From assembly GCA_963832135.1 (NCBI GenBank), contig CAWHTD010000026.1, positions 252,453 to 316,452 on the forward strand: a stretch of 64,000 nucleotides of DNA, written 5' to 3'. The DNA is from Vicinamibacteria bacterium. GTDB taxonomy: Bacteria > Acidobacteriota > Vicinamibacteria > Vicinamibacterales > JAENWD01. A model generated the notes under the pieces. That model was not told the DNA's origin. It searched no databases and worked only from the letters and a program-made list of their open reading frames with translations. The translations under genes were made by a program, and so were the position numbers. Shown in pieces: positions 1,427-33,677 of this stretch. Within the stretch, counting starts at the first letter, position 1, and each line of letters opens with the position of its first letter.

Positions 1427-1456
1427 CCGGGTTGGACGGGTTGATGCGCCGCTCAC

Positions 1457-1520
1457 GTGGCGGCGGGGCTTCAGCCCCGCAACTGGCGGCGCACGCGGGC
1501 CTCAAGACCCGCCTCCACAG
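1457..1520. repeat. REP/REPIN-like hairpin doublet (B-type, heads-out)
   Basis: GTGGCG head + GCGGGGC-TTCA-GCCCCGC (1463-1480), then a weaker inverted copy GCGGG..CCCGC + CTCCACAG (1495-1520). Sits between convergent genes. Confidence 0.7.
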
Positions 1521-1543
1521 TCGTAGAAATAAGCGCCCGGTCA

Positions 1544-2836: not shown

Positions 2837-2914
2837 TCAGGGGCGCGGGACCAAAAGAAGAGCGCCGCGCTGGAGTAAGCTTTCGGCCGGGTTGGTCATC
2901 AAGGGAGGACGGAT

Positions 2915-4040: not shown

Positions 4041-4061
4041 CGCACGAGATAGAATGGATCC

Positions 4062-4960: not shown

Positions 4961-4961
4961 C

Positions 4962-5047
4962 GCCCAGGCCAAGGCTTGGGCCTCCGACTATCGAACGCCA
5001 AGGTACGACAGCCGGACGCCGCGGAAGGCCCGAGCTTCCGCTCGGGC
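4962..5047. repeat. REP/REPIN-like hairpin doublet (C-type, heads-in)
   Basis: GCCCAGGC-CAAG-GCTTGGGC (4962-4981, head CTCCGA on the right) and GCCCGAGC-TTCC-GCTCGGGC (5028-5047, head CGGAAG on the left). Confidence 0.7.
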
Positions 5048-5108
5048 ACACTCAAACCCGACAGTTGCTGCCTCTTCCGGGTGCTGATAAAGTCCCTAGG
5101 TTCCGGGG

Positions 5109-5705: not shown

Positions 5706-5707
5706 CG

Positions 5708-6367: not shown

Positions 6368-6372
6368 CCTAC

Positions 6373-6428
6373 GGAAGAAATCGAGAAATCGAGAAACCGA
6401 GAACTCGAGAATAAGAGAACGAGAAGAC
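6373..6428. repeat. GAGAA-word repeat (dispersed family, copy 1)
   Basis: ggaaGAAATCGAGAAATCGAGAAACCGAGAACTCGAGAATAAGAGAACGAGAAG, T-poor on the + strand, immediately 3' of a + strand gene. Confidence 0.8.
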
Positions 6429-6490
6429 ATGTAGCACGGACCTTCCGCCATAGCCTTTGGCGGAGGCTGGTCAGGTGCGCGTAGACACCT

Positions 6491-8194: not shown

Positions 8195-8212
8195 GCCCGG
8201 AGTCGGTTGCGT

Positions 8213-8282
8213 GTGGCGGCGGGCCTTCCGGCCCGCGTTCTCTTCGCAGGTTGTCGCAGGGCTAAAGCCCCGCCTCCACAGG
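8213..8282. repeat. REP/REPIN-like hairpin doublet (B-type, heads-out)
   Basis: GTGGCG + GCGGGCC-TTCC-GGCCCGC (8219-8236) and GCAGGGC-TAAA-GCCCCGC + CTCCACAG (8256-8282). Confidence 0.75.
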
Positions 8283-8307
8283 TAGATAGTGTTGTAATCT
8301 CCGGTCG

Positions 8308-9678
8308 ATGTCTCCGCTCGACCGCGCCCGCCGCAAGGCCTACTGGCGGCTCCTGCCCCTCTGCTTCATCTGCTACGTCATCGCCTACGTCGATCGCGCG
8401 AACGTCTCCATCGCGAAGCTGACGATGACGAAGGACCTGGCGGGATTCGACAATGCGGTGATCGGGTTCGGAGCTGGAGTGTTTTTCATCGGCTACTTCC
8501 TGCTGGAGATTCCCGGCACGCTCATCATCGAGCGGTGGAGCGCGCGCAAGTGGCTGGCGCGCATCATGGTGACGTGGGGCATCATGGCGGCCCTCACCGC
8601 TGCCGTCCAGACACCCTGGCAGTTCTACAGCGTCCGTTTTCTGCTGGGTCTGGCCGAAGCGGGATTCTTTCCCGGCGTCATCGTCTATCTGACGCACTGG
8701 TTCCCGGCACGCGATCGCGCTCGCGCCCTCGCCTATTTCCTCATCGGCACGCCCGTCGCGCAAATCATCAGCCCCAAGATCTCCAGCGCGCTGCTCGTCA
8801 TCGGCACCGATCAGGTATCTGCGACAGGCGTGGCCATTCACCACCCGGAGCTGCTCGGACTGGAAGGGTGGCAGTGGGTGTACATCTTCTGGGGCATCCC
8901 TGCGGTGGTCCTCGGAGCGGTCGTCTTCTTCGCGCTCACCGACTACCCACATCAGGCGCGCTGGCTGACCGTCGAGGAGCGTGACGCGCTGCAGGCCGAG
9001 CTCGATCGGGACAAGGGACGCGCCGGCAAGAAGCGGCTGACACTCGCCGAAGGCCTGCGCCATCCGCGCGTGCTCCTCCTTGCCCTCGCATATTTTCTTG
9101 CCGTGACGGGCAGCTACGGCATCGAGTTCTTTCTGCCGAGCATTCTCGATCGATGGTATGGGCTGAAGCTCAGCACCCTGACCTGGCTGGTAATGCTTCC
9201 GCCTGTCCTCTCGTTGCTCGGGCAACTGACGTGTGGCTGGAGCTCCGATCGCACGAAGGAACGGATGTGGCACACCGTGGTGCCGATGCTCTGCGGCGCC
9301 GTCGGCCTGGGAATGGCCGTGTGGTCGCGCGGGTCGCTGGTGTTGACGATCGCGTGCTTCATGGTCGCGGCCGCGGGCCTGAAGTCGTATCAGCCCGCGT
9401 TCTGGTCGCTGCCAAGCCTCTTTCTCACCGACACGGCCGCCGCCGGCAGCATCGGCCTGATCAACTCGCTGGGCAATCTCGGAGGCTTCCTCGGCCCCTT
9501 TCTCGTCGGCAGCGTGGAAACGATGACTGGGTCTTTCGAAAGCGGTCTGCTGTTTCTCGCGGCGTCGTCGGCCGCTGGGGCACTCACCATCTTTCTGATG
9601 GGCGTCGGGCGGCCCGAGGTCCCCGAGACTCCGGCCATCTTACCGACGCTCGATTCGGTCCACACCACAGTCCGCTGA
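8308..9678 (+). CDS. MFS transporter (anion:cation symporter/ACS-like)
   Basis: 456 aa, 12-TM profile, with YVDRANVSIAKL and GLAEAGFFPG motifs typical of the ACS subfamily. Confidence 0.85.
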   Translation: MSPLDRARRKAYWRLLPLCFICYVIAYVDRANVSIAKLTMTKDLAGFDNAVIGFGAGVFFIGYFLLEIPGTLIIERWSARKWLARIMVTWGIMAALTAAVQTPWQFYSVRFLLGLAEAGFFPGVIVYLTHWFPARDRARALAYFLIGTPVAQIISPKISSALLVIGTDQVSATGVAIHHPELLGLEGWQWVYIFWGIPAVVLGAVVFFALTDYPHQARWLTVEERDALQAELDRDKGRAGKKRLTLAEGLRHPRVLLLALAYFLAVTGSYGIEFFLPSILDRWYGLKLSTLTWLVMLPPVLSLLGQLTCGWSSDRTKERMWHTVVPMLCGAVGLGMAVWSRGSLVLTIACFMVAAAGLKSYQPAFWSLPSLFLTDTAAAGSIGLINSLGNLGGFLGPFLVGSVETMTGSFESGLLFLAASSAAGALTIFLMGVGRPEVPETPAILPTLDSVHTTVR

Positions 9679-9709
9679 CCGTCTGCGGCGCAAGGCACCA
9701 GACACCCAC

Positions 9710-10606
9710 ATGCGCGTCCGACTTCGTTCACTGATCATGCCGCTTGTAGTCCTCGCCGGGTCGAGCGTCCTGTTCCTTCCGGTCCCGAGGGCATCGACCG
9801 AGGAGTCGCAGATTCGTCTCGTGGTGCAGGCTGACGATCTGGGCGCGGCGCATGGCGTGAACGTCGCCAGCCTGCTCGCGTACAGTCAGGGCATCGTCCG
9901 CACCGTCAACGTCATCATGCCGGCGCCCTGGACACCAGAGGCCGTACGGCTGCTCCTGCAGAATCCTGAGCTCGATGCCGGCGTGCACCTCGCGCTGACC
10001 AGCGAGTGGACGAGCGTCAAGTGGCGTCCCCTCACACGTGCACCGTCGCTGGTCGATCCGTATGGGAATTTCCTTCCGACGGTCTGGCCGAACGATCGCT
10101 TTCCACGGCGGAGCAGCCTGAAGGAGGCGTCTCCGAGCCTCACCGAAATCGAGCAGGAGCTGCGCGCGCAGATCGTATACGCGAAGCGAGCCATCCCGCA
10201 GCTGACGTACACGTGGAATCACATGGGGTTCGACTCGTTGTCTCCGGAGATTCGCGACCTGGTGAGCAGGCTGACGAAAGAGTACCGGCTGGTCACGCCG
10301 ATGGATCTTGGGGTGCAGTTTCTCGAACATGTGTACGAGGGCGAGGACACGGGCGACGTCAAGGCCGACAAGCTCGCCGCCAGGCTCGAGACGCTGGCGC
10401 CGGGCAACTGGCTGATGGTCGATCATGCGGCGACCGACACGCCCGAAATCCAGGCGCTCGGTCACCCAGGCTACGAGAATGTCGCCGCCGACCGGAGTGC
10501 GGTGCTCGAGGCCTGGACGAGCACGAAAGTCAGAGAGGTGGTGGCTCGGCGCCGAATCATCCTGACGAATTATCGTGAGCTCCTGCTGCGGCAGCGGCGG
10601 CCATAG
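9710..10606 (+). CDS. YdjC/ChbG-like carbohydrate deacetylase family protein (secreted)
   Basis: Signal peptide. The ..LVVQADDLGAAHGVN.. motif and later ..HLALTSEW.. resemble the YdjC family. Confidence 0.6.
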   Translation: MRVRLRSLIMPLVVLAGSSVLFLPVPRASTEESQIRLVVQADDLGAAHGVNVASLLAYSQGIVRTVNVIMPAPWTPEAVRLLLQNPELDAGVHLALTSEWTSVKWRPLTRAPSLVDPYGNFLPTVWPNDRFPRRSSLKEASPSLTEIEQELRAQIVYAKRAIPQLTYTWNHMGFDSLSPEIRDLVSRLTKEYRLVTPMDLGVQFLEHVYEGEDTGDVKADKLAARLETLAPGNWLMVDHAATDTPEIQALGHPGYENVAADRSAVLEAWTSTKVREVVARRRIILTNYRELLLRQRRP

Positions 10607-10662
10607 CCTCGCCACGTCGACCGGCCGTACGGCGCCGACTACAATACGCGGTAGGATTTTCC

Positions 10663-11601
10663 ATGCCACGAACGACCTCAACAGAAATTCCGCGACGCCC
10701 CTTCGGCACGACCGGCGAACAAGTCTCGATACTCGGCCTCGGCGGCTGGCATCTTGGCGTGCCGAAGACCGATCGCGACGCCGTGCGTCTGGTGCGCGAG
10801 GCCATCGATTCCGGCGTGACGTTCATGGACAACGCCTGGGACTACAACGACGGCGTGAGCGAGGAGCGCATGGGGAAGGCCTTGCAAGGCCGTCGCGACC
10901 AGGTGTTCCTGATGACGAAGCTGTGCACGCACGGACGCGACGGACGCACGGCGATGAGACAGCTCGAAGAATCCTTGCGGCGCCTCGGGACCGACCATCT
11001 CGACCTCTGGCAGATTCACGAGGTGGCGTTCGACGACGAGCCGCGGCGGCATTTCGCGAAAGGCGGGGCCGTCGAGGCGCTGGATCGCGCCCGCCAGCAG
11101 GGCAAAGTGCGATTCGTCGGCTTCACGGGACACAAGGATCCGGCGCTCCACCTGGAAATGCTTTCCTATGACTATGCGTGGGATAGCTGCCAACTTCCGC
11201 TGAACTGCTTCGACGGCTCGTTCCGGAGCTTCGAACAACGGGTGCTGCCCGAGCTCGCACGGAGGGGCATCGCGCCGATCGGCATGAAGAGCTTCTGCGG
11301 CGATGCCCGCGGGCTCAAGGCCAAGGCCGTCACACCGGCCGAGGCGCTCAGCTACGCGCTCAGCCTGCCGGTTGCCACGGTCGTAAGCGGCATGGAGTCT
11401 CCGCGCATCCTGCGGCAGAACGTCGCCATCGCGCGCGCCTTCCGATCCATGTCGGTGGCCGCGCAGCAGCGTCTGAGGCGACGCGTCGCCGGCCTGGCGG
11501 CTGACGGACGGTTCGAGCTGTACAAGATCTCGGCCGCGTTCGAAGGCGCCGAATCACGGCGGGTTCATGGTCTGCCGGCGCCTGGGGAAATGCCCGTCTA
11601 G
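10663..11601 (+). CDS. Aldo/keto reductase
   Basis: GLGGWHLG..FMDNAWDYNDGVSEE..GKAL..DLWQIHE pattern. Confidence 0.9.
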   Translation: MPRTTSTEIPRRPFGTTGEQVSILGLGGWHLGVPKTDRDAVRLVREAIDSGVTFMDNAWDYNDGVSEERMGKALQGRRDQVFLMTKLCTHGRDGRTAMRQLEESLRRLGTDHLDLWQIHEVAFDDEPRRHFAKGGAVEALDRARQQGKVRFVGFTGHKDPALHLEMLSYDYAWDSCQLPLNCFDGSFRSFEQRVLPELARRGIAPIGMKSFCGDARGLKAKAVTPAEALSYALSLPVATVVSGMESPRILRQNVAIARAFRSMSVAAQQRLRRRVAGLAADGRFELYKISAAFEGAESRRVHGLPAPGEMPV

Positions 11602-11652
11602 AACTCGAGAACTCGAGAATAGGAACCAGAGAATGGGAGACCTGGAGAAAAC
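11601..11652. repeat. GAGAA-word repeat (copy 2)
   Basis: GAACTCGAGAACTCGAGAATAGGAACCAGAGAATGGGAGACCTGGAGAAAAC, directly after the AKR stop. Confidence 0.75.
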
Positions 11653-11656
11653 GATT

Positions 11657-11680
11657 GTAGGCCCAAGCTTTAGCTTGGGC
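11657..11680 (+). repeat. REP-like hairpin (C-type, single)
   Basis: GTAG head + GCCCAAGC-TTTA-GCTTGGGC, a perfect 8-bp stem. Confidence 0.75.
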
Positions 11681-11734
11681 AAATCCGCTGGCTTCGCGAG
11701 CCGCGGATTCCGCCATCGTGACGGCGCCCGGGTC

Positions 11735-12706
11735 TTACGTACGCTGCGAATGCCACCGCCACGCGTGCTGGATGATGACGTCGAGCTCGGGGAACTGGCA
11801 CTGCCATCCGAGTTCGCTGCGAGCGCGGGACGGGTCGGCGACAAGTGACGCCGGATCTCCCGCCCGCCGCGGCGACTCCACGGCAGGCACCTGCCGGCCT
11901 CCCAGCCGCGCGACAGTGTCGACCACTTCTCTGACCGAATGGCCGCGGCCGGTGCCAAGGTTCACCGCCAGGCTGGGAGATCCCGCGTCCAGCCGCTCCA
12001 GCGCGCGAAGGTGCGCGTCGGCGAGATCCATCACGTGCACGTAGTCGCGGATGGCGGTGCCGTCCGGCGTGTCGTAATCGGTGCCGAAGATCTTTACAGC
12101 TGCGCGCGTGCCGAGCGCGGCACCGATCACCAGGGGAATCAGATGAGACTCCGGGTCGTGATCCTCGCCAATCGCTCCTTCGGGATCCGCACCCGCCGCA
12201 TTGAAGTACCGCAGCGCCGTCCAGCGCAGGCCGTAGCACTCGCCATACCAGCGGAGAATCCTCTCCACCATCAGCTTCGACTCGCCATAGGGGTTGACCG
12301 GCGACTGCGGATGCGACTCGTCGATGGGCACGCGAATCGGATTTCCGTACGTGGCGCACGTCGACGAGAACACGAACCGATCAACGCCCGCGCTCCGCAT
12401 GGCCTCGAGCAGATTGAGCGTGCCGACGGTATTGTTCCGAAAGTACTTCGCGGGATCGCTCATCGATTCGCCGACCAGCGCGCTCGCGGCAAAGTGAATC
12501 ACCGCGTCGAGACCCTGGCGCGCAAACACGTCTCCCAGCCGATCAGGATCCGACAGAGTGCCCCGCTCGAGCGGCCCCCACTTCACGGCCCAGTCGTGGC
12601 CCTGGCTCATGTCGTCGAACACGACCGGTGTGTGCCCCGACGCGGCGAGGAGCTTCGCCGTGTGACTGCCGATATACCCCGCGCCGCCCGTGACGAGAAT
12701 GCGCAT
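11735..12706 (-). CDS. galE: UDP-glucose (UDP-hexose/pentose) 4-epimerase
   Basis: MRILVTGGAGYIGSH.., SSTCATYG and extended-SDR epimerase features. Confidence 0.9.
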   Translation of the reverse strand: MRILVTGGAGYIGSHTAKLLAASGHTPVVFDDMSQGHDWAVKWGPLERGTLSDPDRLGDVFARQGLDAVIHFAASALVGESMSDPAKYFRNNTVGTLNLLEAMRSAGVDRFVFSSTCATYGNPIRVPIDESHPQSPVNPYGESKLMVERILRWYGECYGLRWTALRYFNAAGADPEGAIGEDHDPESHLIPLVIGAALGTRAAVKIFGTDYDTPDGTAIRDYVHVMDLADAHLRALERLDAGSPSLAVNLGTGRGHSVREVVDTVARLGGRQVPAVESPRRAGDPASLVADPSRARSELGWQCQFPELDVIIQHAWRWHSQRT

Positions 12707-12715
12707 TGAGTGATT

Positions 12716-14194
12716 CTATTTGGTGGAGACGCCGCCCGCATTCACCGTCATCACCCCGACGGCCGCCGAGCCGGGCGACGAGCCTTCGAAGACGTAAGCC
12801 GCGCGTCCAGTCTGCTCCGAGTAGGCGGCGGCAATCTCGCGCACACGCGGGCCGGCGTGACGGTGTCCGAGAATCGCGACGGTGCCGCCGCTCCCGCCGC
12901 CTGTGATCTTTGCCCCGAAGATCCCCTCAGCGGGGCCGGCGCTCCGTGCCAGCGCGACCAACATGTCGGTGCCCTCCGATCCGAGGCCACAGGCCGAGTA
13001 GCTCGCGTGCGACTGATACATCAGCGCGCCGAGACGCCGCGCGACGGCTTCCTCCTTCGAGCAGCCGTGGTCCGCATCGGACTCGACGCTCGTCCCGACG
13101 GGCGACTCGCCCGATCGCAGAAGATCCGCCCACTCGCTGACTCGCTCGTGCTCGTAAATCGGGTGCGCCGTGGGTTTCCAGACCGCATAGGTGCGGCTTG
13201 GATCGACGCGTGTCACAGAGTCCGTCGTCCCCGCGTATCGCGACAAGAAGGCCTCGCCGTTCAGTGTGCCGGGTAGGTCGTGCTCGTATTCCAGGAACGT
13301 CAGGGCGCCAACGTTCGCAAGATAGCCGTGCCAGCGAGGGTCCTCGACGTGAACGTGACCGCTGCGATCGCCAGGAGCCGTGTGGAACCCGGCAAGGTCA
13401 GAAATGATGCGGTAGCCCATGAATGCCCCTACGCGCACCGCACCGTAGTCGGCGCCCGTGACGGCATGGCGTATTCCGGAATCGATACCCCACACGGCGA
13501 GGCCTGGAGGCATCGCAATCGTGCCCTGGAATTCCGCCGGCTGACAGAGCAGCGCCATCAAACTGTCTCGTTCACCGCAGATGGCGGCCATCTGATCCAT
13601 CACTCCACAGGGCGCCCCTACGACGAGATTTTCGACCTGCTGGCACCGGATCGCGCGAATCCGCGGCGAAATCGTGAGGCTCCAGGCTTCGACGACCGCC
13701 TCCATGGTGGCGGCCTCGAGGGCCGCAGACGAGCTGACGCCCTTGCCCTCCGGTACGTCGGATTCGATGAGCAGCGTGGCGCCGTCTGAAAAGTGCGCGT
13801 CGTGCTCGCGGGCCAGCACGTGGAACACGCCGGCAACGTAAGCGGCCCAGTGCCGAGCGGGATCCGCCGCGAACCACGACCGGACCTCGTCGTACGACCG
13901 GCGCCCATCGGCCACGACGGCAAGCGGCACGTGCAGGCGTCGCGAGTCGCCGCTTTGGCCGTGCGACACGATTTCCAGGATTGGCTCCGGGCGCCGCTGC
14001 AGGGCGACGCGCGTGGCTTCGCGAATCGGCCACTGGAGCACGAGCGATCCCGAGTAGTCTGCAATGCCGCCCATCACGTCGAGACGCCCCGGGGCCCTCG
14101 ACAGATACACCGGGCCGCCGCGCATGCCACTGCCCGCCGCAAGATCGGCACGCACGCGCTCCGCACACTCAACGAGATCGGACGGGGCGGTCAT
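12716..14194 (-). CDS. GHMP-family sugar-1-kinase (galactokinase/L-arabinokinase-like)
   Basis: [22 protein letters not shown]-terminal signature and GHMP ATP loop [15 protein letters not shown]. The start overlaps the upstream stop (ATGA). Confidence 0.8.
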
Positions 14195-24500: not shown

Positions 24501-26528
24501 ATGCTCGAACGGTCCGGCTCCGTGAGTGATGTTGAGGTTGCCACCGCGTGTCCGCTCGACTGTCCGGACGCCTGCAGTTTGTCGGTCACCGTGCGAGACG
24601 GGCGCGTCGTCGAGGTGGATGGCGGACATGCCAACGACGCGACTCGCGGCTATATCTGCGCAAAGGTCAGGCGTTTTCCGGAACGTGTTTACGGCGAGGA
24701 TCGGCTGCGTTTCCCGATGGTCCGGACCGGGCCCAAAGGCAGTGGTCGATTCGCGCGCGTGTCCTGGGACGAAGCGCTCGAGGCGATCGTCTCGGCGGTC
24801 ACGCGCGTTCGCGACGCATTCGGCGCCGAAGCGATCCTGCCCTATTGCTACGGCGGATCGAACGGGCTGCTGACGCAGGATGCGACCGACGCAATTTTCT
24901 TCCGCCGGCTCGGCGCATCGCGCCTGTTGCGGACGCTATGTGCGGCTCCTACGGGCGCGGCGAACCAGGCGCTCTACGGCAAGATGCCGTCGGTGGCGTA
25001 TCAGGACTACCCGTCGGCGCGTCTGATTATTCTCTGGGGCGTCAATCCTGGCGTCTCGGGCATCCATGCGATGCCGTTCTTGAAGACCGCGCAGAAAAAC
25101 GGCGCGAAGCTCGTGGTCATCGATCCGCGGATGACGACCGTCGCGCGGACGGCCGATCTGTACCTGCCCGTCAAACCGGGCACCGACGTGGTCGTCGCGC
25201 TCGCGCTGCATCGGGTTCTCTTCGAAGAGGGGCATGCCGACCAGGCATTCCTGGCGGAGCACACGACTGGAGCCGACGCGCTTCGCGCCCGTGCCGCCGA
25301 GTGGACCATCGAACGGGCCGCGGAGGTTGCTGGACTCGATCCGGTGGAGCTGCGGCGACTGGCCGACTGGTATGTCGCGGCGAGCCCCGCACTCGTCCGG
25401 TGCGGGTGGGGACTCGAACGCAACCGGAATGGTGGCAACGCGGCCATGGCCGTGCTCGCCCTGCCGGCCGTCGCGGGAAAGTTCGGAGTGCGTGGCGGGG
25501 GCTACGCGATGAGCAATTCTGCGGCGTGGGGGTTCACACATCCCTGGGTCGACACGCCGGAGCCGTCGACGCGAGCCATCAACATGAACGAACTGGGCCG
25601 CGTGCTGACCGAGCCGCTCGATCCGCCGGTGAAGCTGCTGTTCGTTTACAACGCCAATCCCGCCGCCACCGTACCCGATCAGGTCCGAGTGCTGTCGGGA
25701 CTCGAGCGAGAGGACTTGTTCACGGTCGTCTTCGAACAGGTGCGGACCGATACGGTCCCCTTTGCCGACGTCGTGTTGCCGGCGACGACCTTTCTCGAGC
25801 AGTACGATTTTGCGCGCGCCTACGGGCCCATCGCGCTGCAGCTCACGCAGCCGGTGGTGGACCCGGTCGGCGAATCGCGATCGAACAACGATGTGTTCGC
25901 GGACCTCGGCCAGCGGCTCGGTCTTCTGGACGACGGCGAACAGCGAGGCGAGTTGGAGACGCTGGTGCGCGTCATGGATGGATTGCCGTCCGAGATTGGC
26001 GCGCCGCTCAAGGCCTCGGGCGTGGCGACGCCGCCGTGGCGAGGTGCGCCGGTGCAGTTCGTCGACGTCTTTCCGCGCACCCACGACGGACGCATTCACT
26101 TCTTCCGCGAGGATCTCGACGCCGAGGCGCCGCTTGGTCTTTACGCCTATCAGCCGGATCCGGCGTCCGACGCTTTTCCGCTGGCTCTGATTTCGCCGGC
26201 CTCCGATCGCACGATCAGCTCCACGCTCGGCGAATTGCCCCGCCCTGAGGTCAAACTCCTCCTGAATCCCGTCGACGCTCTCACGCGGGGCATCGAGGAT
26301 GACGATGACGTGCGCGTGTGGAACGAGCTCGGTGAAGTCCGGTGCCGCGCACACGTGGGTGCGTGGGTGCGGCCCGGAACGGCGGTTCTGCCCAAGGGGC
26401 TCTGGCGCCGCAACACCGCCAACGGGTTCACCGCCACGGCGCTGGCACCGGCGACGCTGACCGATCTCGGTGGCGGGGCATGTTTCAACGATGCGCGCGT
26501 CGAGGTTCAGAAGCTCGCGCACGGCTGA
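24501..26528 (+). CDS. Molybdopterin-dependent oxidoreductase (DMSO-reductase/BisC-like superfamily)
   Basis: ATG 24501. N-terminal 4Fe-4S motif CPLDCPDAC..C, then MopB and C-terminal molybdopterin dinucleotide-binding-like region. The 5' 850 nt of the long ORF is antisense to ndh and is trimmed. Confidence 0.85.
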   Translation: MLERSGSVSDVEVATACPLDCPDACSLSVTVRDGRVVEVDGGHANDATRGYICAKVRRFPERVYGEDRLRFPMVRTGPKGSGRFARVSWDEALEAIVSAVTRVRDAFGAEAILPYCYGGSNGLLTQDATDAIFFRRLGASRLLRTLCAAPTGAANQALYGKMPSVAYQDYPSARLIILWGVNPGVSGIHAMPFLKTAQKNGAKLVVIDPRMTTVARTADLYLPVKPGTDVVVALALHRVLFEEGHADQAFLAEHTTGADALRARAAEWTIERAAEVAGLDPVELRRLADWYVAASPALVRCGWGLERNRNGGNAAMAVLALPAVAGKFGVRGGGYAMSNSAAWGFTHPWVDTPEPSTRAINMNELGRVLTEPLDPPVKLLFVYNANPAATVPDQVRVLSGLEREDLFTVVFEQVRTDTVPFADVVLPATTFLEQYDFARAYGPIALQLTQPVVDPVGESRSNNDVFADLGQRLGLLDDGEQRGELETLVRVMDGLPSEIGAPLKASGVATPPWRGAPVQFVDVFPRTHDGRIHFFREDLDAEAPLGLYAYQPDPASDAFPLALISPASDRTISSTLGELPRPEVKLLLNPVDALTRGIEDDDDVRVWNELGEVRCRAHVGAWVRPGTAVLPKGLWRRNTANGFTATALAPATLTDLGGGACFNDARVEVQKLAHG

Positions 26529-26549
26529 CCCGTCGGACTTCCGACGAAT

Positions 26550-27011
26550 TCACCGCGGCTTGGAGCTGTTCCAGATCGTCACGGCGATCTTCCAGGTGCC
26601 GGCGGCGTCTTTCTTGAGCACGTTGACATACTTGGTCACGTCGAGCACGGTCTGGCTGCCGGCCTGCGATTCGAAGGTCGCCGTCCCCCACTCGTAGCCG
26701 AGGTCGCCTGACGTGGTGAGGCCGTTTGATGCTCCATCCACGGCGTTGAACCCGCCGCCGTACTGCTGCTTCCAAAACGCCTCGATCGCCACCTTCCCGT
26801 GGATCGTCTCGCCGTTCGGGGGCAGGAGCAGGGCATCGTCGGTATAGGCCGACGCCGTGAGCGAGGCATCACGCGCCTGGACGCCATTTGAAAGCGCCCC
26901 AACCGGCTCGAATGCTTTGGGATCGGGCGGAGCGCTTTGAGCGGTTTGCGCCGTCAGTTGGGGACCGCCGAGAACGATTACCGAGAGAACAAAGACGACG
27001 GTCGCTCGCAT
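26550..27011 (-). CDS. Secreted SnoaL-like/DUF4440 (NTF2-fold) protein
   Basis: Signal peptide; ..YTDDALLLPPNGETIHGKVAIEAFW..; C-terminal ..GTWKIAVTIWN. Confidence 0.6.
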   Translation of the reverse strand: MRATVVFVLSVIVLGGPQLTAQTAQSAPPDPKAFEPVGALSNGVQARDASLTASAYTDDALLLPPNGETIHGKVAIEAFWKQQYGGGFNAVDGASNGLTTSGDLGYEWGTATFESQAGSQTVLDVTKYVNVLKKDAAGTWKIAVTIWNSSKPR

Positions 27012-27209
27012 GAACGCCTCCTCAGGCCACCTGTCGATGATGACGGGCAGGCGAGGTCACACGCGTTCCAACGAGCGCCCACCGCCGCGGGCGGCATGCT
27101 ATTACAACGGCGCACCAACCGACAAACGTCGGTGCATCAGGAGGGCGACGAAGGCTCGCGTCGGGCTGGGGGGCCGACGCGAACCCGCTGGATTTTCTGG
27201 AGGGACGGC

Positions 27210-27443
27210 TTAGACCATCCCGAGGTTTTCGCTGGTCGTGGGTTCCTGCGAGTCGGGAAGACGACCGCGTCCACCGCGGCTGACCTGACCTCCCTTGCGC
27301 CCCGCCCGACGTGCTTCTTCGGGGGTCCACTCGTGGGCGGTCCCCTTTTCGTGTGCTGCACGCCCGCCCTTGCTGGCGATCTCGCGCTGCCGCTCCGGAC
27401 TCATCGATGCGAATCCGCGTCGTTCCTTGCGTTCTCCTGTCAC
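27210..27443 (-). CDS. KGG-repeat general stress protein (YciG-like)
   Basis: 77 aa with repeated ..SKGGRAAHEKG.. / ..RKGGQVSRGG.. stress-induced KGG motifs. Confidence 0.75.
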   Translation of the reverse strand: MTGERKERRGFASMSPERQREIASKGGRAAHEKGTAHEWTPEEARRAGRKGGQVSRGGRGRLPDSQEPTTSENLGMV

Positions 27444-27908
27444 GTGTGCCTCCTTGCGTCCTCACGCGCGCAACCATTGCCTGCGTGCGGCCGTGACGTC
27501 CGACCGAGAGCCGAGAACTCTCACGGTCCAGAATCCCCCACGACAAGAACGAATGAATCGACTACCGACCACGACTCCCCAGCAGACCGGATCACTGAAA
27601 GACTGTCGAGGTCACGGTGTCGGGCGGCACAACTTCAAAGCACGTGCCAGAGGCGGTTCAGGGCGCACCCGATCGGCGTCCAGCAAGAATGCTCAAGAAT
27701 GCGGCGTAAACTGAGCAGGCAGGCGCGAGGTGAGTAAGGGATACCCACCTCAAGTGCTGATATGGATCGATACACGACGAGTAGAAAACCAGACACAGTT
27801 CCGAGAAACGCGAAGGGCATTGCCGGACGCGCGCCAGCCGGAAGACACCGACGTGATTACGGCAGGTTGGATCGATGGTAAAGGCAAGACAGCGTTAGAA
27901 TTGAACGT

Positions 27909-28232
27909 ATGAGTCCTTGTGCCCCGGCCGTGCCACCCGACCCCAGCCGCAACAAGACCGGACGACTAGTGTTCTGCGTGAAGATGCAGAAGGAGCTTCC
28001 CGGACTCGATGCCCCTCCATGGCCCGGCGAGCTTGGACAGAAGGTGTTCGAGAACGTCTCCCTCGAAGCGTGGAAGCTCTGGGAAGAACGAATGAAGATG
28101 ATCCTGAACGAGTACCGGCTGCTTCCGTTCCAGAAGGAGGCCCAGGATCTGGTCGCCAAGCACATGGAGGAGTTCTTTTTCGGCGAAGGTGCGGCCCTTC
28201 CCCCCGGCTACGTTCCTCAGCAAACGAAGTAG
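27909..28232 (+). CDS. yggX: Fe(2+)-trafficking / oxidative-damage protection protein YggX-like
   Basis: ..VFCVKMQKELPGLD.PPWPGELGQKVFENVS.EAW..W...MILNE.. aligns to my recollection of YggX. The start may be GTG 27970. Confidence 0.75.
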   Translation: MSPCAPAVPPDPSRNKTGRLVFCVKMQKELPGLDAPPWPGELGQKVFENVSLEAWKLWEERMKMILNEYRLLPFQKEAQDLVAKHMEEFFFGEGAALPPGYVPQQTK

Positions 28233-28243
28233 GCGCGCGCGGC

Positions 28244-29509
28244 CTACCCCATCGGGACCGCGCGATCGATGCGAAACCGCAATCGGGCGTGAGCCTCGCG
28301 GACGGCGGCTTCAGCCTCCGCAGCCGTGGGTCCGCGCGCGAAGATGAACCCCAGGTAAGTCGCGCCTTCAGGCAACGGCGTCAGCACCTGGTCGAGTCGT
28401 GCGGTGATACGGATGTCGGTCACGCCCGCCACACCCGCGGCGACGTCGACGCCCTCCACGCCGCGATAGATGCCTTCCTTCGGAATCGGCACCATCATCA
28501 CGGCGGAGCCCTCCCGGAGTGGATGCCAGTCGTCGATGTCTTCGCCTGCGGCGTGACGAAGCAGCAATTCCTCGAGCGTGCACGGTTCGTCCTGGCGATT
28601 CGTCAACGTCACCGCGCGCGCACAGAGGCCGCCAATCGGCCGCGCGGCCACTTCGAGCACCGTCACGCCGGCCGGACCCACGCGGCATTCCGCGTGAATC
28701 GGACCGTGTCTCAGGTCCAGCGCCTGCCTCGCGCGGTCGACTGTCGCGACGATCGCCTGGATGGTCTCTTCGTCGGCTCGGGAGGGCGTTGCGTAGATGG
28801 TTTCCTCGAAGAACGGGCCATCGAGCGGATCGGGCTTGTCGAAAACGGCCACCACCCTGAGAACATCGCGATCGACGACGCCCTCGAGAGCGAACTCTTG
28901 CCCCTCGACGAACCGCTCGATCACGATTGTCGACGACGACGGATCGCGCAACGCCCGCACGTCGAGCGAATCGAGCATGCGCCGCAGCCGCGTCACCGCG
29001 GCGAGGAGCTCCTCCCGGGTGTCGGCGCGAATCACGCCTCGACTGCCCGAAAGCACCACGGGCTTCACCACCGCAGGCAGCAGGTGCTCGGCGCGCGCGA
29101 TCGCCGTCGAGCGCGACACGCCATCGTCGATCACCACGAGGTCGGGCGATGGAAGGCCCGCCGCACGCAGCGTCTCGCGTGTCATGACCTTGTGGCGGCT
29201 TCGTTCCGCCGCGGCCGGCGAGTGCCAGCGGACGCCGAATCGCTCGGCGGCGCGGGCGGCCAGGACCGTCGGGCGATCGCCGACGGCAATCACTCCGGCA
29301 GGAGGCTCCGCAAGTGCCGCGTCGAGGGCGAGGAGCGACGCCTCGACATCGTGAAAGCGCACCGCGATGGCGCGATCGCGCCAGGGATCGTCGAGGCGAT
29401 CGCAGCAATCCGAGGCGAGTTGCAGTTCCACGCCCAGCCGCGTCGCGGCATCATCGAAGGCGCGGATCTGATAGCCCGTGGTGGCGGCGAAGAGTAGGAC
29501 GCGCGGCAC
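28244..29509 (-). CDS. ATP-grasp domain ligase (unknown substrate)
   Basis: 421 aa; pre-ATP-grasp N-domain then ..LPAVVKPVVLSGSRGV..IVIERFVEGQEFALEG.. The start lies 3 nt after the radical SAM stop. Confidence 0.8.
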   Translation of the reverse strand: MPRVLLFAATTGYQIRAFDDAATRLGVELQLASDCCDRLDDPWRDRAIAVRFHDVEASLLALDAALAEPPAGVIAVGDRPTVLAARAAERFGVRWHSPAAAERSRHKVMTRETLRAAGLPSPDLVVIDDGVSRSTAIARAEHLLPAVVKPVVLSGSRGVIRADTREELLAAVTRLRRMLDSLDVRALRDPSSSTIVIERFVEGQEFALEGVVDRDVLRVVAVFDKPDPLDGPFFEETIYATPSRADEETIQAIVATVDRARQALDLRHGPIHAECRVGPAGVTVLEVAARPIGGLCARAVTLTNRQDEPCTLEELLLRHAAGEDIDDWHPLREGSAVMMVPIPKEGIYRGVEGVDVAAGVAGVTDIRITARLDQVLTPLPEGATYLGFIFARGPTAAEAEAAVREAHARLRFRIDRAVPMG

Positions 29510-29512
29510 GAT

Positions 29513-30922
29513 TCAGATGAGCGCCGCCTGCCCGTCGGTCGGCTCGGCGCAGCAGTACCATGGCTCGGTCAGATATGGCACGCGCGGCGGCAACGACTGC
29601 GCTCCAGGCGTCGATCGGAACTTCCGTTCCATCCCGTCGACATCGGCGAGCGCACCCTGAATCGCGTCGAACGTCTCCAGGCGGCTGACGGCCGTGCGGC
29701 GGGCGAGCGTCGCGACCTTCTGCTGCAGTGCATCAACCCTGGGATCGGGGTGCATCCAGGGGTACGCGAGGGCCAATGGATCGAACGGTCCAACCAGATC
29801 GCGCACCTCGCCGAGGCTTAGCAGGTGCGATCCCGCGGGAATCAACAGCCGGATCGCCCACTGCACCGGGGGGACGTGATCGACGAGATCGAGCTGTTCG
29901 ATCGCATCGAGGAGGTCCGCATAGCCGGTCAGCGTCGTCCAGGGCGTGAACGCCACGAAGGTTGGCACCAGCGGGACCGACGCACCACGCATCAATGCCA
30001 CCGCGCGCTCGAAATCTCCACGGGTGTGGCCCTTGAGGAGCCGCGCCAGCACTGCGTCGTCTACCGACTCCACGGCGGACGTGACGAACGCGCAGCCTGT
30101 GTCTCGCAGAAGCGGCAGGTCGGCAGCATGCTGCAACAGATGCTCGATCTTGATGGTGACGTCGTATGTGATCCCCGGCACCTCGCGCGCCAGGCGTTCG
30201 AGAATGTGCCTCGCGTGCCCGATGCCGTTGAAAAAGTCAGGGTCGCCGAACGTGATGTGCCGCGCGCCCTGCTCCACCTGGGCGCGGATGTCGGCCAGCA
30301 CCACATCTGCGGCGACGATCCGGAACTTGCCGTTGTAGATTGGCACCACCGGACAGTGTCGGCACACGTGCTTGCAGCCGCGGCTGGCCTCTGTGTACCC
30401 GACCACGCGCCGCGTGCCGTCGGGCCACTCGAGCGCCGCGTACTGTTCGAGCGCCGGCAACCCGCTGCGATCGGGCGGGATGAAGGATAGACGCGCGATC
30501 CCCTGACTGCTGTGGAGGCCGGGCTTCGGCCCCGCGTCTGTCTCATCGGCGAGTTGGCGCGCCAGCGCCACGAGATCCGCTTCGAACTCTCCGCCGAGGA
30601 TCGTGCTGGCGCCACGCTCGCGCAGCAGTTCGGCATTCGGCGGGGCATAGAGGCCGTACGCGCAGATGTGGGCCTTTGGATTGAGGTCGCGAACGCGATC
30701 GATGACGGGGAGCGCCAGCCGCGTGGCCGTGTGCATGGGCAGGAACACCGCGACGAGGCCCGCCTCCCGTACGAGCTCTGGATCGAGCCGTGTGCGCGAC
30801 AAATCGGCCATAGACACCTCGAAGCCGTCCCGTCGCAACCACGCGGCCGGCGACGCAATCCCGAACGGCTGGCGCCCCAGCTCATACGTGGAAATCAGCA
30901 GCACGTGCGTGGCGCTGCTCAC
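29513..30922 (-). CDS. B12-binding-domain radical SAM protein with CCAEP C-terminal tail
   Basis: SRGCKHVCRHCP (CxxxCxxC). The tail ..EPWYCCAEPTDGQAALI* is encoded at 29540-29554. GTG 30922 is preferred as the start. The ORF extension to ATG 31060 is repeat-encoded with atypical codons (many CGA/GAA). Confidence 0.85.
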   Translation of the reverse strand: MSSATHVLLISTYELGRQPFGIASPAAWLRRDGFEVSMADLSRTRLDPELVREAGLVAVFLPMHTATRLALPVIDRVRDLNPKAHICAYGLYAPPNAELLRERGASTILGGEFEADLVALARQLADETDAGPKPGLHSSQGIARLSFIPPDRSGLPALEQYAALEWPDGTRRVVGYTEASRGCKHVCRHCPVVPIYNGKFRIVAADVVLADIRAQVEQGARHITFGDPDFFNGIGHARHILERLAREVPGITYDVTIKIEHLLQHAADLPLLRDTGCAFVTSAVESVDDAVLARLLKGHTRGDFERAVALMRGASVPLVPTFVAFTPWTTLTGYADLLDAIEQLDLVDHVPPVQWAIRLLIPAGSHLLSLGEVRDLVGPFDPLALAYPWMHPDPRVDALQQKVATLARRTAVSRLETFDAIQGALADVDGMERKFRSTPGAQSLPPRVPYLTEPWYCCAEPTDGQAALI

Positions 30923-30930
30923 ACGCTCTT

Positions 30931-31065
30931 CGGCGTTCCGTTCCTCGCCGGTCGCTGTCCGCTCGTCGTTACAAATCCGTCGCTCGCCGTCCGTCGCTGC
31001 CCGCTGGTCGCTCTCCGCTCGTCGTTCGTCACCCGTCGTTCGTCGTTCGCCGTTCCCCATTCGGT
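30931..31065. repeat. A-depleted CGTCGTT/CCGCTCG word repeat filling a divergent spacer
   Basis: The + strand uses almost only C/G/T; I count about 6 A in about 130 nt. Repeated words: CCGCTCGTCGTT, CGTCGTTCG. Confidence 0.8.
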
Positions 31066-31077
31066 TATCCTACCCCC

Positions 31078-31962
31078 ATGTCCCTGAAGGAGTACCGCGC
31101 CAAGCGGAACTTCGCCGTGTCGCCCGAGCCGCGCGGCGATGCCCAGCCGAAGCGGAAGCGAGAGCTGTTCTTCTGCGTGCAGAAGCACCTGGCGAGCCAT
31201 CTGCACTACGACTTTCGGCTCGAGCACGAAGGCGTCCTGCTGTCGTGGGCCGTGCCGAAGGGCCCGTCGTTGGATCCGTCCGTCAAACGGCTCGCCATGA
31301 AAGTCGAGGATCATCCCGTCGAGTACGGCAGCTTCGAAGGCGTGATTCCCGAAGGCTATGGCGCCGGCATCGTCATGCTCTGGGATCAGGGCACGTGGGA
31401 GCCGCTCGTGGACGATGTGGGTGCGGCGTTGAAGAAGGGGGATCTCAAGCTGCGGCTCGCGGGCGTGAAGCTGAAAGGATCGTGGGCGCTCGTTCGGACG
31501 GGGGAGGATGGACGCAGCTGGCTCCTCATCAAGCATCGCGACGAGTGGGCCGGCGCGGTCGACATCGCCACGTTCGCACCGCTCAGCGTCAAGAGCGGCG
31601 GCAATCTGACCGATATCGTGGCGTCCGAGGCGCCGGCGCTCTGGCAAAGCAACCGGGCGGCACGAAGCGGCAGCGCCGACTTGTTGAAGATCGTTGAGAA
31701 GGCCGTCGCGCTCGAATCGGAGCAAAACGCTGGCGGCGCCGCACCCGAAAAGCCCACATCGCTCAGCACGTCGAAGGCCGCGGGCACCAAGCCGAAAGCC
31801 GCGCGCGGCGCGGAACGGACGGCGGCGACGAGCTCGAAACCTCGGGCGACCTCGAAAGCTCGGACTACAAAAGCTTCTTCGACAACACGCTCCACACCGC
31901 GTAAGCCAGCCGCCAGCGGTCGTGCCGCGCGATCTCCTGCCGCCAGAAATCGGCCTCGATGA
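31078..31962 (+). CDS. Stand-alone LigD-type 3'-phosphoesterase (PE) domain protein with basic low-complexity tail
   Basis: ..FCVQKHLASHLHYDFRLE..LLSWAVPKGPS..EDHP.EY..FEG.IP..YGAG.. The C-terminal 90 aa are K/R/S/T/A-rich. Confidence 0.8.
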   Translation: MSLKEYRAKRNFAVSPEPRGDAQPKRKRELFFCVQKHLASHLHYDFRLEHEGVLLSWAVPKGPSLDPSVKRLAMKVEDHPVEYGSFEGVIPEGYGAGIVMLWDQGTWEPLVDDVGAALKKGDLKLRLAGVKLKGSWALVRTGEDGRSWLLIKHRDEWAGAVDIATFAPLSVKSGGNLTDIVASEAPALWQSNRAARSGSADLLKIVEKAVALESEQNAGGAAPEKPTSLSTSKAAGTKPKAARGAERTAATSSKPRATSKARTTKASSTTRSTPRKPAASGRAARSPAARNRPR

Positions 31963-32830
31963 CCTCGCAGTTCGCGGGGACATCGCCGAGCGGCAGCGGC
32001 GACTTGTGCTCGGCCTCATAACGAGCCAGCACCTGGTCGGGCGGACGCTTCGTGTTGGCGAGCACGACGTCGACGTCGCGGCCAATCGCCGCTGAGATCT
32101 TGCGCACCTCCTCGCCCGCCGTGAAGCCCGCCATCCCACGTCCTTCGGTAAGCAGATTCGCAATCAGGATGATCGGTCCTCTCACCGACGCCAGGGCCTC
32201 GGGCGCGCCCGCGACGAGCAGCGGCGGCATCAGGCTCGTATAGAAGCTGCCGGGGCCGATGACCACGGCGTCGAACCCCCTGATGGCCTGCGCAACGGCC
32301 GGGTGAATCGTGGGCACCGGCTCGAGCCACACCCGGTCGATGCCGTGACCTTCGCTTTGCGCCGCGTCGACTTCCACCTCTCCCCGCGTGATCGATCCAT
32401 CCGCGTAACTCGCGCAGATCGTCGCGTTTTTCACGCTTACCGGCCACACCCGTCCCTCGCACCCCAGAAGCGTTCGCAACGCATCGACCGCGACGAGAAA
32501 GTCGCCGCTGTACTGCTCCATCATCGAGAGCAGCAGGTTGCCGCCCGTGTGGCCCGAGAGCTTCGCGTGCTCGCTCAGCATCGGCAGCCGTGCGAGCAAC
32601 ACCCGCCGCGCTTCGCCTTCGTTTGGCGAGAGCGCGAGCGCGCATTTCAGGACGTCGCCGGGCGGCAGCACGCCCAGCTCATCGCGGAGCTGGCCGGAGC
32701 TGCCACCGCTATCGAACATCGTGACGATGGCGTGGACGCGCAGCCAGGGATTGCGCTTGAGGCCGCCGAGCAGACTGGGCATCCCCGTGCCGCCGCCGAC
32801 GCAGCCGACGTTGAGCTCTCGAAATCGCAT
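31865..32830 (-). CDS. YvcK/CofD-family (gluconeogenesis factor-like) protein
   Basis: ..VGGGTGMPSLLGGLK..VTMFDSGGSSG.LR..GPGSFYTSL.. Confidence 0.85.
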   Translation of the reverse strand: MRFRELNVGCVGGGTGMPSLLGGLKRNPWLRVHAIVTMFDSGGSSGQLRDELGVLPPGDVLKCALALSPNEGEARRVLLARLPMLSEHAKLSGHTGGNLLLSMMEQYSGDFLVAVDALRTLLGCEGRVWPVSVKNATICASYADGSITRGEVEVDAAQSEGHGIDRVWLEPVPTIHPAVAQAIRGFDAVVIGPGSFYTSLMPPLLVAGAPEALASVRGPIILIANLLTEGRGMAGFTAGEEVRKISAAIGRDVDVVLANTKRPPDQVLARYEAEHKSPLPLGDVPANCEVIEADFWRQEIARHDRWRLAYAVWSVLSKKLL

Positions 32831-32878
32831 CGGGCATCGATTCTACTCGTGACGCGGACCAAAGCCCGCCGCCACCAT

Positions 32879-32934
32879 GTGGTGGCGGCCCTTTAGGGCC
32901 GCGTGTGCGCGGGGCTGAAGCCCCGCCGCCACAG
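32879..32934. repeat. REP/REPIN-like hairpin doublet (B-type, heads-out)
   Basis: GTGGTG + GCGGCCC-TTTA-GGGCCGC (32885-32902) and GCGGGGC-TGAA-GCCCCGC + CGCCACAG (32909-32934). Confidence 0.8.
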
Positions 32935-32945
32935 TCAGGAGCGCA

Positions 32946-33677
32946 ATGGAGCGTATTGCGCGCCAGACGTACAATGGCCGAATGTCGTCTGCCATCGAGA
33001 CGGTCGTCTCGGACCTGCGCGCGATCTTTGCGCTGCGCCTGCACGCGGTCGTGGTGTATGGCCGGCATGCCACCGGGCCGGCTCCAGGCGCACCGGTCCA
33101 CACGCTGGCCCGCGTGACCGAGCTTGGCATGGCCGATCTCGAGGCGTGCGCCAATCGCGCGCGCGGCTGGCAGCGGAACGACATCGCGGTGCCAATCCTC
33201 ATGGCGCAGGACGAATTCGCCCGCGCCCTTGACGCCTTTCCAATGGAGTTCGGCGCGATCCTCGCTGGCTATCGAGTGGTGTTCGGACCCGACCCGTTCG
33301 AGGGCCTGTCGGTCCAGCCCTCGGATCTGCGCCGCGCATGCGAGGTCGAGGCGCGCGGCTATCTGATTCACCTGCGCGAAGGATTCATCGAGAGCGGCGG
33401 TGAGCCGTCGGCCGTCGCCAGGCTCGTCTCGGCGTCGGCGCCGGCGCTCAGAACCCTGATTCTCAATCTCGCGCGGCTCGACGGAATGCCCGAGGCCTCC
33501 GCCTCGGAGTACGCAACCGCGCGTCTCGGCTCGACGCATGGGCGGTCAATTGCCGCCGTCGTGGCGCTGCTCGAGAGCCATATCAGATCGACCGATGCGG
33601 CGCGATCGTTCGCCGACTACCTGGCGGCTGCCGAGGCGCTCGTCGCCTACGTCGACCACTGGACACCGCGAACGTGA
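32946..33677 (+). CDS. Hypothetical protein
   Basis: 243-aa ORF with coding-like codon bias. Its stop overlaps the TPM gene start (GTGA). No family recognised. Confidence 0.5.
   Translation: MERIARQTYNGRMSSAIETVVSDLRAIFALRLHAVVVYGRHATGPAPGAPVHTLARVTELGMADLEACANRARGWQRNDIAVPILMAQDEFARALDAFPMEFGAILAGYRVVFGPDPFEGLSVQPSDLRRACEVEARGYLIHLREGFIESGGEPSAVARLVSASAPALRTLILNLARLDGMPEASASEYATARLGSTHGRSIAAVVALLESHIRSTDAARSFADYLAAAEALVAYVDHWTPRT

Follow-up and report, generated by a model that had tools for sequence, protein, structure and literature searches.

The stretch of DNA analyzed here (the window) comprises 64,000 nucleotides of contig CAWHTD010000026.1 from a Vicinamibacteria bacterium of the Acidobacteriota. 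Our subject is a set of three of its genes, encoding a radical S-adenosylmethionine (SAM) enzyme with a C-terminal CCAEP tail, an ATP-grasp ligase and the iron-trafficking protein YggX. They represent a conserved three-gene module of radical SAM enzyme, ligase and iron or Fe-S helper, the helper being YggX in Acidobacteriota and an NfuA-like protein elsewhere. The module has the following features in the window:

29513-30922, minus strand: CCAEP-tail radical SAM enzyme, 469 amino acids (aa), a CUAEP/CCAEP-family member of the Cys-Cys type, sister to ArsL (NF040546, NF040542, Pfam, AlphaFold2 model, Foldseek)
30353-30376, minus strand: CxxxCxxC motif, C183/C187/C190, ligands of the radical SAM [4Fe-4S] cluster (translation; invariance in the family and in ArsL)
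29540-29566, minus strand: conserved C-terminal tail EPWYCCAEP, E453-P461, in which Cys458 is replaced by selenocysteine (Sec) in most orthologs
28244-29509, minus strand: L-amino-acid-ligase-type ATP-grasp enzyme, 421 aa (Pfam, match to PDB 3VOT, neighborhood conservation)
27909-28232, plus strand: YggX, Fe(2+)-trafficking and oxidative-damage-protection protein, third conserved member of the module (NF003817, Pfam Iron_traffic)

A gap of 3 nt separates the radical SAM stop codon from the start of the ligase gene (minus strand: TGA-ATC-GTG), as an earlier note made from the sequence alone had described, and a scan of 27400-31400 found no terminator-like element between the two. The yggX gene converges on the ligase gene with a stop-to-stop distance of 11 nt. 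The earlier note had read it as a boundary of the pair; the convergent orientation stands but the boundary does not, since yggX is a conserved partner in 40 of 49 loci, as detailed below. From its ATG, the radical SAM open reading frame (ORF) spans 29513-31060 on the minus strand, and its family-conserved part runs from a GTG at 30922 or a GTG at 30904; the NF040546 profile begins at residue 7 of the 469-residue version, and the family alignments all begin at VLLISTYELG. The translation holds ASRGCKHVCRHCP (C183/C187/C190; GCKHVCRHCP), and its C-terminus reads ...EPWYCCAEPTDGQAALI.

Conservation of the module and the class of its ligase

A HMMER search at E <= 1e-30 returned 590 clusters at 50% identity, a set that includes fragments and some ArsL-type relatives, and a genome scan found a relative of the radical SAM protein in at least 579 species genomes. 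We surveyed the best 80 loci among these genomes (L001-L080; nearly all from Acidobacteriota and 55%-63% identical), of which 49 are well flanked. A metagenome scan contributed 80 further loci (L099-L178), 28 of them well flanked, and nine distant members from Chloroflexi, Actinobacteria and other groups (34%-45% identity) were also examined.

The ligase gene adjoins the radical SAM gene in 42 of the 49 well-flanked genome loci, yggX does so in 40, and both are present in 39; the adjacency that the earlier note had seen in a single genome thus recurs next to orthologs, both within and across phyla. Across these loci yggX is adjacent in at least four arrangements. Gene orders in the genome scan include radical SAM gene, ligase gene and convergent yggX (the window type), the same pair followed by yggX in the same orientation, and yggX, radical SAM gene and convergent ligase gene, the last at seven Terriglobia loci in which yggX is co-oriented and lies 35 nt upstream. 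Gaps between the radical SAM and ligase genes of the genome loci are mostly 4-200 nt. The YggX of the window scores 113.8 bits against NF003817 (cut-off 74) and 110.8 bits against Pfam Iron_traffic.

In seven of the nine distant members, a divergent NifU-domain gene stands beside a ligase gene followed by the radical SAM gene, the latter two often overlapping. The NifU-domain protein, whose called length is 114 aa in L097 and 211-233 aa in the other six loci, has an NfuA-like architecture, with a degenerate A-type domain and an Nfu CxxC domain. Metagenome loci add the orders Nfu, radical SAM and convergent ligase, seen in AT-rich organisms (32%-34% GC), and radical SAM, Nfu and ligase. The ligases are orthologous across phyla, with 38%-45% identity and 230-270 bits to the window ligase. 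Because the ligase adjacency is kept across phyla in shuffled orders and with orthologous ligases, it reflects selection and not chance inheritance. The CUAEP/CCAEP family itself is already catalogued, and the pair is real, not an artifact. The module, comprising the radical SAM enzyme, a dedicated ligase, YggX or NfuA and occasionally DUF169, is not described in the literature searched, nor is its shuffled spread across phyla. The earlier note had proposed an undescribed two-enzyme system; the conserved pair is indeed without prior description in that literature, but the set is larger by its third member.

The ligase matches Pfam ATP-grasp_4 (PF13535) at 106 bits and LAL_C2 (PF18603) at 57 bits, and ATPgrasp_N (PF18130) is present in its orthologs. 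As a single sequence it finds PDB 3VOT (BL00235) with an E-value of 5.5e-28; a profile of 16 orthologs finds BL00235 over its full length at 2.2e-64, then BacD at 3.5e-27 and other L-amino-acid ligases (LALs). None of the curated NCBIfam equivalog models is passed, and matches to ATP-grasp enzymes of the RimK/LysX type are only weak. The architecture ATPgrasp_N, ATP-grasp_4 and LAL_C2 is common to the window ligase and the LALs BL00235/3VOT, BacD, RizA and TabS. By these matches the protein belongs to the LAL class and not to the ATP-grasp enzymes of pathways for peptides made by the ribosome and modified after translation (RiPPs), and it would act on free amino acids to give a dipeptide. Known LALs come from antibiotic clusters (bacilysin, rhizocticin, tabtoxin) or are orphans, whereas the window ligase pairs with a radical SAM gene; no radical SAM partner is known for any of those LALs. 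Met-Gly and Met-Met are the products listed for BL00235 (review PMC6920838), and the first substrate of this enzyme therefore has a 3-amino-3-carboxypropyl (ACP)-S skeleton.

Other genes accompany the module in parts of its range. DUF169 (COG2043) lies between the radical SAM and ligase genes in L008 (11707-12435) and L031 (4543-5262), adjoins the radical SAM gene in L045 (8121-8834) and L050 (9225-9962) and the NifU gene in L094 (2257-2964); in 8 of the 80 metagenome loci its distance from the radical SAM gene is no more than about 1.5 kb. The window is without it. It is an occasional fourth partner across distant lineages, and one preprint places DUF169 beside HgcA-like genes in Nitrospina. 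A Cys-rich protein of the Rv0495c family (PF11307) follows the radical SAM gene in L087 (7629-8333), in L088, which is a near-identical duplicate of L087, and in L095 (6417-7151), at least two of these loci being actinobacterial. Its gene begins at or overlaps the radical SAM stop, and L095 has a ligase while the actinobacterial L087 has none. In the Chloroflexi-type loci L089, L090, L093 and L094, the ligase-radical SAM pair is followed immediately by genes for a LipB-like octanoyltransferase, lipoyl synthase and pyruvate dehydrogenase E1, E2 and E3, and the NfuA-like protein there could serve both radical SAM enzymes, lipoyl synthase included. At the Terriglobia loci L063 (2834-4483) and L073 (10955-12598), where yggX comes before the radical SAM gene, the usual ATP-grasp site is taken by a convergent gene for an AMP-binding (adenylate-forming) ligase, which may be a non-orthologous replacement. 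Thermomicrobium roseum was considered as a cultured carrier of the module and rejected; its radical SAM gene is on a megaplasmid, with no ligase ortholog there.

The radical SAM enzyme, ArsL and the two-chalcogen tail

Against NF040546, the model of the CUAEP/CCAEP-tail radical SAM (seleno)proteins, the window protein scores 626.2 bits (cut-off 500, E 3.2e-188) over profile positions 1-467 of 468. With the CKHVCRHC motif and the EPWYCCAEP tail, this bears out the family named in the earlier note. The second-best model is that of ArsL, NF040542 (270.4 bits, E 3e-80, profile positions 1-412 of 423), and the remaining radical SAM models give 43 bits or less; Pfam Radical_SAM (PF04055) is also matched. 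The best-scoring family is therefore an uncharacterized one, the characterized ArsL standing at 270 bits, below its cut-off of 450. The sole paper naming the family in the literature searched terms it uncharacterized and describes the Cys-Sec dipeptide as rare and otherwise found in heavy-metal-handling proteins (bioRxiv 10.1101/2022.07.06.499078). No substrate assignment for the family was found in that literature, as the earlier note had stated.

By these scores the nearest characterized relative of the window enzyme is ArsL, a relationship that supplies both a concrete mechanistic lead and a role for the tail. ArsL moves the ACP group of SAM onto As(III), a chemistry of methylthioadenosine (MTA) and ACP, and the As(III) is bound by three cysteines of its C-terminal RCCLKC, a motif needed for activity (bioRxiv 10.1101/2024.02.01.577332, 10.64898/2026.04.29.721666, PMC13598754). 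The two enzymes are alike in length, in two-domain architecture and in a vicinal Cys-Cys near the C-terminus, at 30%-35% identity, but the ArsL tail RCCLKC has three Cys and the C[C/U]AEP tail of the window family has two chalcogen ligands. An alignment of 12 diverse CUAEP/CCAEP members with four ArsL sequences has 35 columns invariant across both families, among them GC.H.C..C, D.DFFN, K.EH, SA.E and PW, and the tail CC of the one family aligns with the CC of RCCLKC in the other. C183, C187 and C190 are invariant across 101 family members and the four ArsL sequences, and the tail pair provides the only universal Cys positions beyond this cluster motif. C87 and C277 were tried as universal extra ligands and rejected; they are at least 90% conserved, yet ArsL and several distant members lack them.

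With 101 family sequences as input, AlphaFold2 gave a model with a pLDDT of 92.7 (74-85 in the tail) and a pTM of 0.92. Its best Foldseek match is AprD4, with TsrM, OxsB, MgmA, CysS and MiaB also found, and all of the matched structures have a Rossmann "B12-binding-like" domain before the radical SAM barrel. The cobalamin-binding-like N-terminal domain of the earlier note is thus correct as a fold, in this AprD4-like model. As a label for function, cobalamin use is not supported, because the match to the Pfam B12-binding family PF02310 is sub-threshold (20.5 bits, cut-off 32.1) and ArsL is not described as cobalamin-requiring. Taken as a whole, the interpretation in that note holds for the family and the pairing, while its B12 label fails as to function and the ArsL relationship, the LAL class and the yggX partnership had been overlooked.

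The codon that corresponds to Cys458 (29549-29551 in the window) is an in-frame TGA at about 62 of the 80 genome loci; there the frame continues through the conserved AEPT..Q to the true stop, and many database proteins of the family end early at ...EPW[YF]C. In these approximately 62 orthologs the TGA is, to judge from the conserved frame, read through as Sec, and the window carries the minority Cys form. In a neighbor-joining tree the Cys form appears in at least seven separate clades within a Sec background. Because Sec and Cys alternate in this way, the second tail position is probably a reactive or ligand site at which Sec is preferred and Cys tolerated, a pattern typical of such sites.

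Four plasmid-borne ars islands from three unrelated lineages (the Bacillus cereus group and Priestia; Alicyclobacillus acidocaldarius; Pantoea agglomerans) encode an RCCLKC-tail (ArsL-type) protein together with an ATP-grasp protein:

B. cereus pAH820_272 (L082), 1136-10116
Priestia (L083), 3427-11437
Alicyclobacillus pAACI01 (L084), 3124-12643
Pantoea agglomerans (L085), 6216-14052

The ATP-grasp protein of the Bacillus island was checked and has ATP-grasp_4 and LAL_C2; the other three are 33%-51% identical to it. As a group the island ligases form a separate family, 33%-51% identical to one another and 26%-30% identical to the window ligase. A small CMD/AhpD-like gene precedes the ATP-grasp gene, and further island products are ArsN1, an aquaporin, a CobW GTPase and either a major facilitator superfamily (MFS) transporter or ArsM. 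The canonical Pseudomonas arsQML cluster is without an ATP-grasp gene, and we found no paper in the literature searched that links arsinothricin clusters to ATP-grasp enzymes. An ArsL-superfamily radical SAM enzyme with a LAL is thus a recurring design, which fits a scheme in which an unusual amino acid is converted to a dipeptide, and it suggests that these islands make an arsinothricin-derived (arsenical) dipeptide. The settings of the two families differ. ArsL belongs to ars operons (ArsM, ArsQ/MFS, ArsN1, ArsR) and its plasmid islands are mobile, with transporters, regulators, ArsN1 and the CMD/AhpD-like protein where the window module has YggX or NfuA; the window module lies among chromosomal housekeeping genes with its own ligase and iron helper.

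A proposed pathway and its rivals

Starting from what is observed (family membership, fold, cluster motif, tail with Sec/Cys alternation, ligase class, tight gene coupling and cross-phylum linkage with an iron helper), we tentatively propose that an ArsL-like radical SAM reaction builds a methionine- or glutamate-like amino acid onto a tail-bound heteroatom, that the ligase turns this into a dipeptide, and that YggX or NfuA maintains the cluster. In the first step, the CCAEP-tail enzyme would bind SAM on its [4Fe-4S] cluster (C183/C187/C190) and, if homology to ArsL is a guide, transfer the ACP group of SAM to a soft heteroatom (of As, Se or S type) on the two-chalcogen tail; the resulting non-proteinogenic amino acid would be akin to methionine, homocysteine or glutamate. 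The translationally coupled LAL would then condense this amino acid with a second one, in an ATP-dependent reaction, to a dipeptide. BL00235, the closest characterized relative of the ligase, takes methionine, with its ACP-S skeleton. In a third step, YggX, or the NfuA-like Fe-S carrier of other phyla, would feed iron to the oxygen-labile cluster or repair it, in hosts that are mostly aerobic soil bacteria. NfuA serves the radical SAM enzymes LipA and MiaB, and YggX protects Fe-S proteins; a helper is tied to a radical SAM enzyme in the module as well. A dedicated syntenic helper for the CUAEP/CCAEP family has not previously been described, and the role given to it here is drawn from known NfuA and YggX biology. 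The housekeeping-gene setting and the lack of transporter, regulator and resistance genes point to a housekeeping or stress function and not to a sporadic antibiotic cluster.

An attractive but less likely variant of this pathway would be a second noncanonical radical SAM chemistry of the ArsL kind, forming a carbon-chalcogen bond. Selenium or sulfur on the tail, as a selenotrisulfide or persulfide, would take the ACP group to give a (seleno)homocysteine-type amino acid and then a dipeptide (seleno)thiol or stress metabolite, with YggX or NfuA sustaining the enzyme in air. It is rather improbable; if true, C-Se or C-S bonds would be formed by a route not seen before, and aerobic soil phyla would have a new metabolite of primary or stress metabolism.

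Several observations weigh against the proposed dipeptide pathway. Whether the enzyme performs ACP or 5'-deoxyadenosyl chemistry is not readable from sequence, and no member of the family has been characterized. The window protein does not reach the cut-off of the ArsL model, its family is without the third tail Cys of ArsL, and a variable insert of roughly 35-50 residues precedes the tail relative to ArsL. No ars, selenium-metabolism, exporter or resistance genes are found near the module in the window, and the radical SAM and ligase steps may occur in either order. The ligases of the ArsL islands being only 26%-30% identical to that of the window, the ligase pairing in the two families may be convergent and not inherited. 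Among the 28 well-flanked metagenome loci, the ligase is present at 14 and YggX or Nfu at 13, and 11 are partnerless; no shared substitute partner was found in these 11 loci, which have lineage-specific synteny only (peptidase, NadA/MoaA). An adjacent ligase is likewise lacking beside the radical SAM gene of Thermomicrobium roseum and in two actinobacterial lineages.

The main rival is a canonical 5'-deoxyadenosyl radical enzyme that abstracts a hydrogen atom from some small molecule (the amino acid or dipeptide made by the ligase being one possibility), with the tail acting as a mobile shuttle for hydrogen atoms or electrons instead of holding the substrate. The best structural match, AprD4, is a 5'-deoxyadenosyl radical diol dehydratase with the same two-domain fold, the tail has two chalcogen residues where ArsL has three, and the neighbors have a redox or stress flavor (YggX, the KGG-repeat protein next to it, the Rv0495c family and NfuA). 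A vicinal Cys-Sec at a flexible C-terminus is, moreover, a classic redox motif, as in thioredoxin reductase. We nonetheless consider this rival possible rather than probable, given that the full-length similarity to ArsL (E 3e-80) is far above that to any 5'-deoxyadenosyl enzyme (the next model gives 41 bits) and that the tail aligns with the substrate-binding motif of ArsL. The fold would also accommodate a cobalamin-dependent (class B) radical SAM methyltransferase, with its B12-binding-like Rossmann domain and weak model or structure matches to PhpK, HpnR and MgmA, but the class B models give 17-43 bits against cut-offs of 250-650 (PhpK 41 against 600); together with the sub-threshold PF02310 match, and with neither AprD4 nor ArsL described as cobalamin-requiring, this makes such an enzyme very unlikely.

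The pathway could instead be specific to arsenic, the enzyme making a hydroxyarsinothricin-like ACP-As compound from arsenite or methylarsenite, as ArsL does, and the ligase an arsenical dipeptide that would serve in detoxification or act as a "Trojan horse" antibiotic. ArsL is the nearest characterized relative, ArsL clusters with LAL-type ligases exist, and a review credits "MCCA," a variant of the ArsL tail with two Cys, with high activity toward methylarsenicals. At L050 the radical SAM gene lies about 1 kb from genes for ArsR, for an ArsC-like protein and for an arsenite methyltransferase that scores 346 bits against NF008823 (cut-off 263). Beside the module, however, ars genes, an exporter, ArsM and ArsN1 are absent from the window and from nearly all 160 loci surveyed, the one other methyltransferase seen beside a family member, at L127, is UbiE, and the chromosomal housekeeping setting is conserved phylum-wide, unlike mobile ars islands; an arsenic-specific role is accordingly doubtful. 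RiPP-like tailoring, which the earlier note had considered typical of this enzyme combination, is unlikely, and modification of a ribosomal precursor peptide by the pair strikes us as highly improbable. Radical SAM enzymes and ATP-grasp ligases do both occur in RiPP pathways, but the ligase here is of the free-amino-acid LAL type, and clustering of ORFs of at least 90 aa over the 80 genome loci gave no conserved small ORF and hence no precursor gene, in line with the note's own remark that no precursor peptide, transporter or regulator is adjacent. The 4-200-nt gaps between the radical SAM and ligase genes are too short for a precursor gene, DUF169 (about 240 aa) is the only recurrent insert between them, and no RiPP recognition element, protease or transporter is present. 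About equally remote is a diphthamide-like modification, in which ACP would be placed on a protein residue and an ATP-dependent ligase would act on the ACP carboxylate. The order of Dph2 and then Dph6 parallels a radical SAM enzyme followed by a ligase, Dph2 is, apart from ArsL, the only enzyme known to use a [4Fe-4S] cluster to turn SAM into an ACP radical or organometallic species, and the ATP-grasp superfamily includes the protein-modifying ligases RimK and LysX, to which the window ligase has weak matches. Dph2 differs, however, in its fold, lacks CxxxCxxC and modifies a histidine in a protein; the module contains no conserved gene that could be a candidate target, YggX and NfuA are non-homologous and so neither is likely to be a shared substrate, and the ligase is closest to free-amino-acid ligases.

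The arsenic context at L050 (9225-13678 on the Vicinamibacterales chromosome OY759970.1) reads DUF169, radical SAM gene, FKBP-like gene, ArsR, arsenite methyltransferase and ArsC-like gene. L050 is a basal CUAEP member without ligase or yggX, and its arsenic context is the only one among the surveyed family loci. A link to arsenic through methyltransferases was considered as a general feature and rejected, the L050 enzyme being the only true arsenite methyltransferase.

ArsL is so far the only radical SAM enzyme of canonical fold shown to cut SAM at the "wrong" bond, forming a carbon-metalloid bond. The window enzyme belongs to a sister family of ArsL that is much larger; most of its members are selenoproteins, and none has an assigned function. 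With the conserved ligase and iron helper, the database label becomes a testable pathway, for which candidate substrates can be named, MTA is the predicted by-product and the Cys-Sec tail is given a clear part. If the proposed dipeptide pathway is confirmed, it would extend noncanonical radical SAM chemistry, give a selenoenzyme a defined role in aerobes, and add a new dipeptide metabolite in Acidobacteriota, Chloroflexota and Actinomycetota.

The upstream spacer and flanking genes

The module is flanked in the window by the following features:

30923-31077: spacer separating the divergent genes for the radical SAM enzyme and a stand-alone LigD phosphoesterase, 155 bp, A-depleted, with imperfect 7/14/28-nt repeats
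31078-31962, plus strand: stand-alone LigD 3'-phosphoesterase domain protein with a long Ala/Lys/Pro-rich tail
31865-32830, minus strand: CofD-related YvcK-like gene
27210-27443, minus strand: KGG-repeat general-stress protein adjoining yggX (Pfam KGG, 56 bits)

The spacer, whose odd composition the earlier note had remarked on, does contain only 9 A in 155 bp (5.8%), as against 17.7% A window-wide, and just 55 of 63,844 sliding 155-nt windows are as A-poor. Its imperfect repeat, with periods of 7, 14 and 28 nt, is local, which rules out an origin as a dispersed element. The spacer stays open in the radical SAM frame, and the 46 extra codons are read-through of the repeat. The database gene call P0001 accordingly has 515 aa with a spurious NDERR-rich N-terminus; a similar N-terminus is found in the close relatives P0002 and P0003, in both of which an NDERR-type repeat is kept upstream; the extension is a gene-call artifact. 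Presumably the spacer holds the operon promoter or a leader. No sigma-70 consensus was found in the scan of 27400-31400, spacer included, and no Rfam family in an E-value scan of 26500-33000 or in a gathering scan of the whole window; a tRNA scan found no tRNAs in the window, tRNA-Sec included.

Homologs of the KGG-repeat protein occupy the equivalent relative position in 24 of the 80 genome loci. It is a lineage-level neighbor whose place in the module is uncertain, plain synteny being possible. The LigD-phosphoesterase and CofD-like genes are syntenic with the module in only about 30 of the 80 genome loci, and in the window their longest ORFs overlap convergently by about 100 nt.

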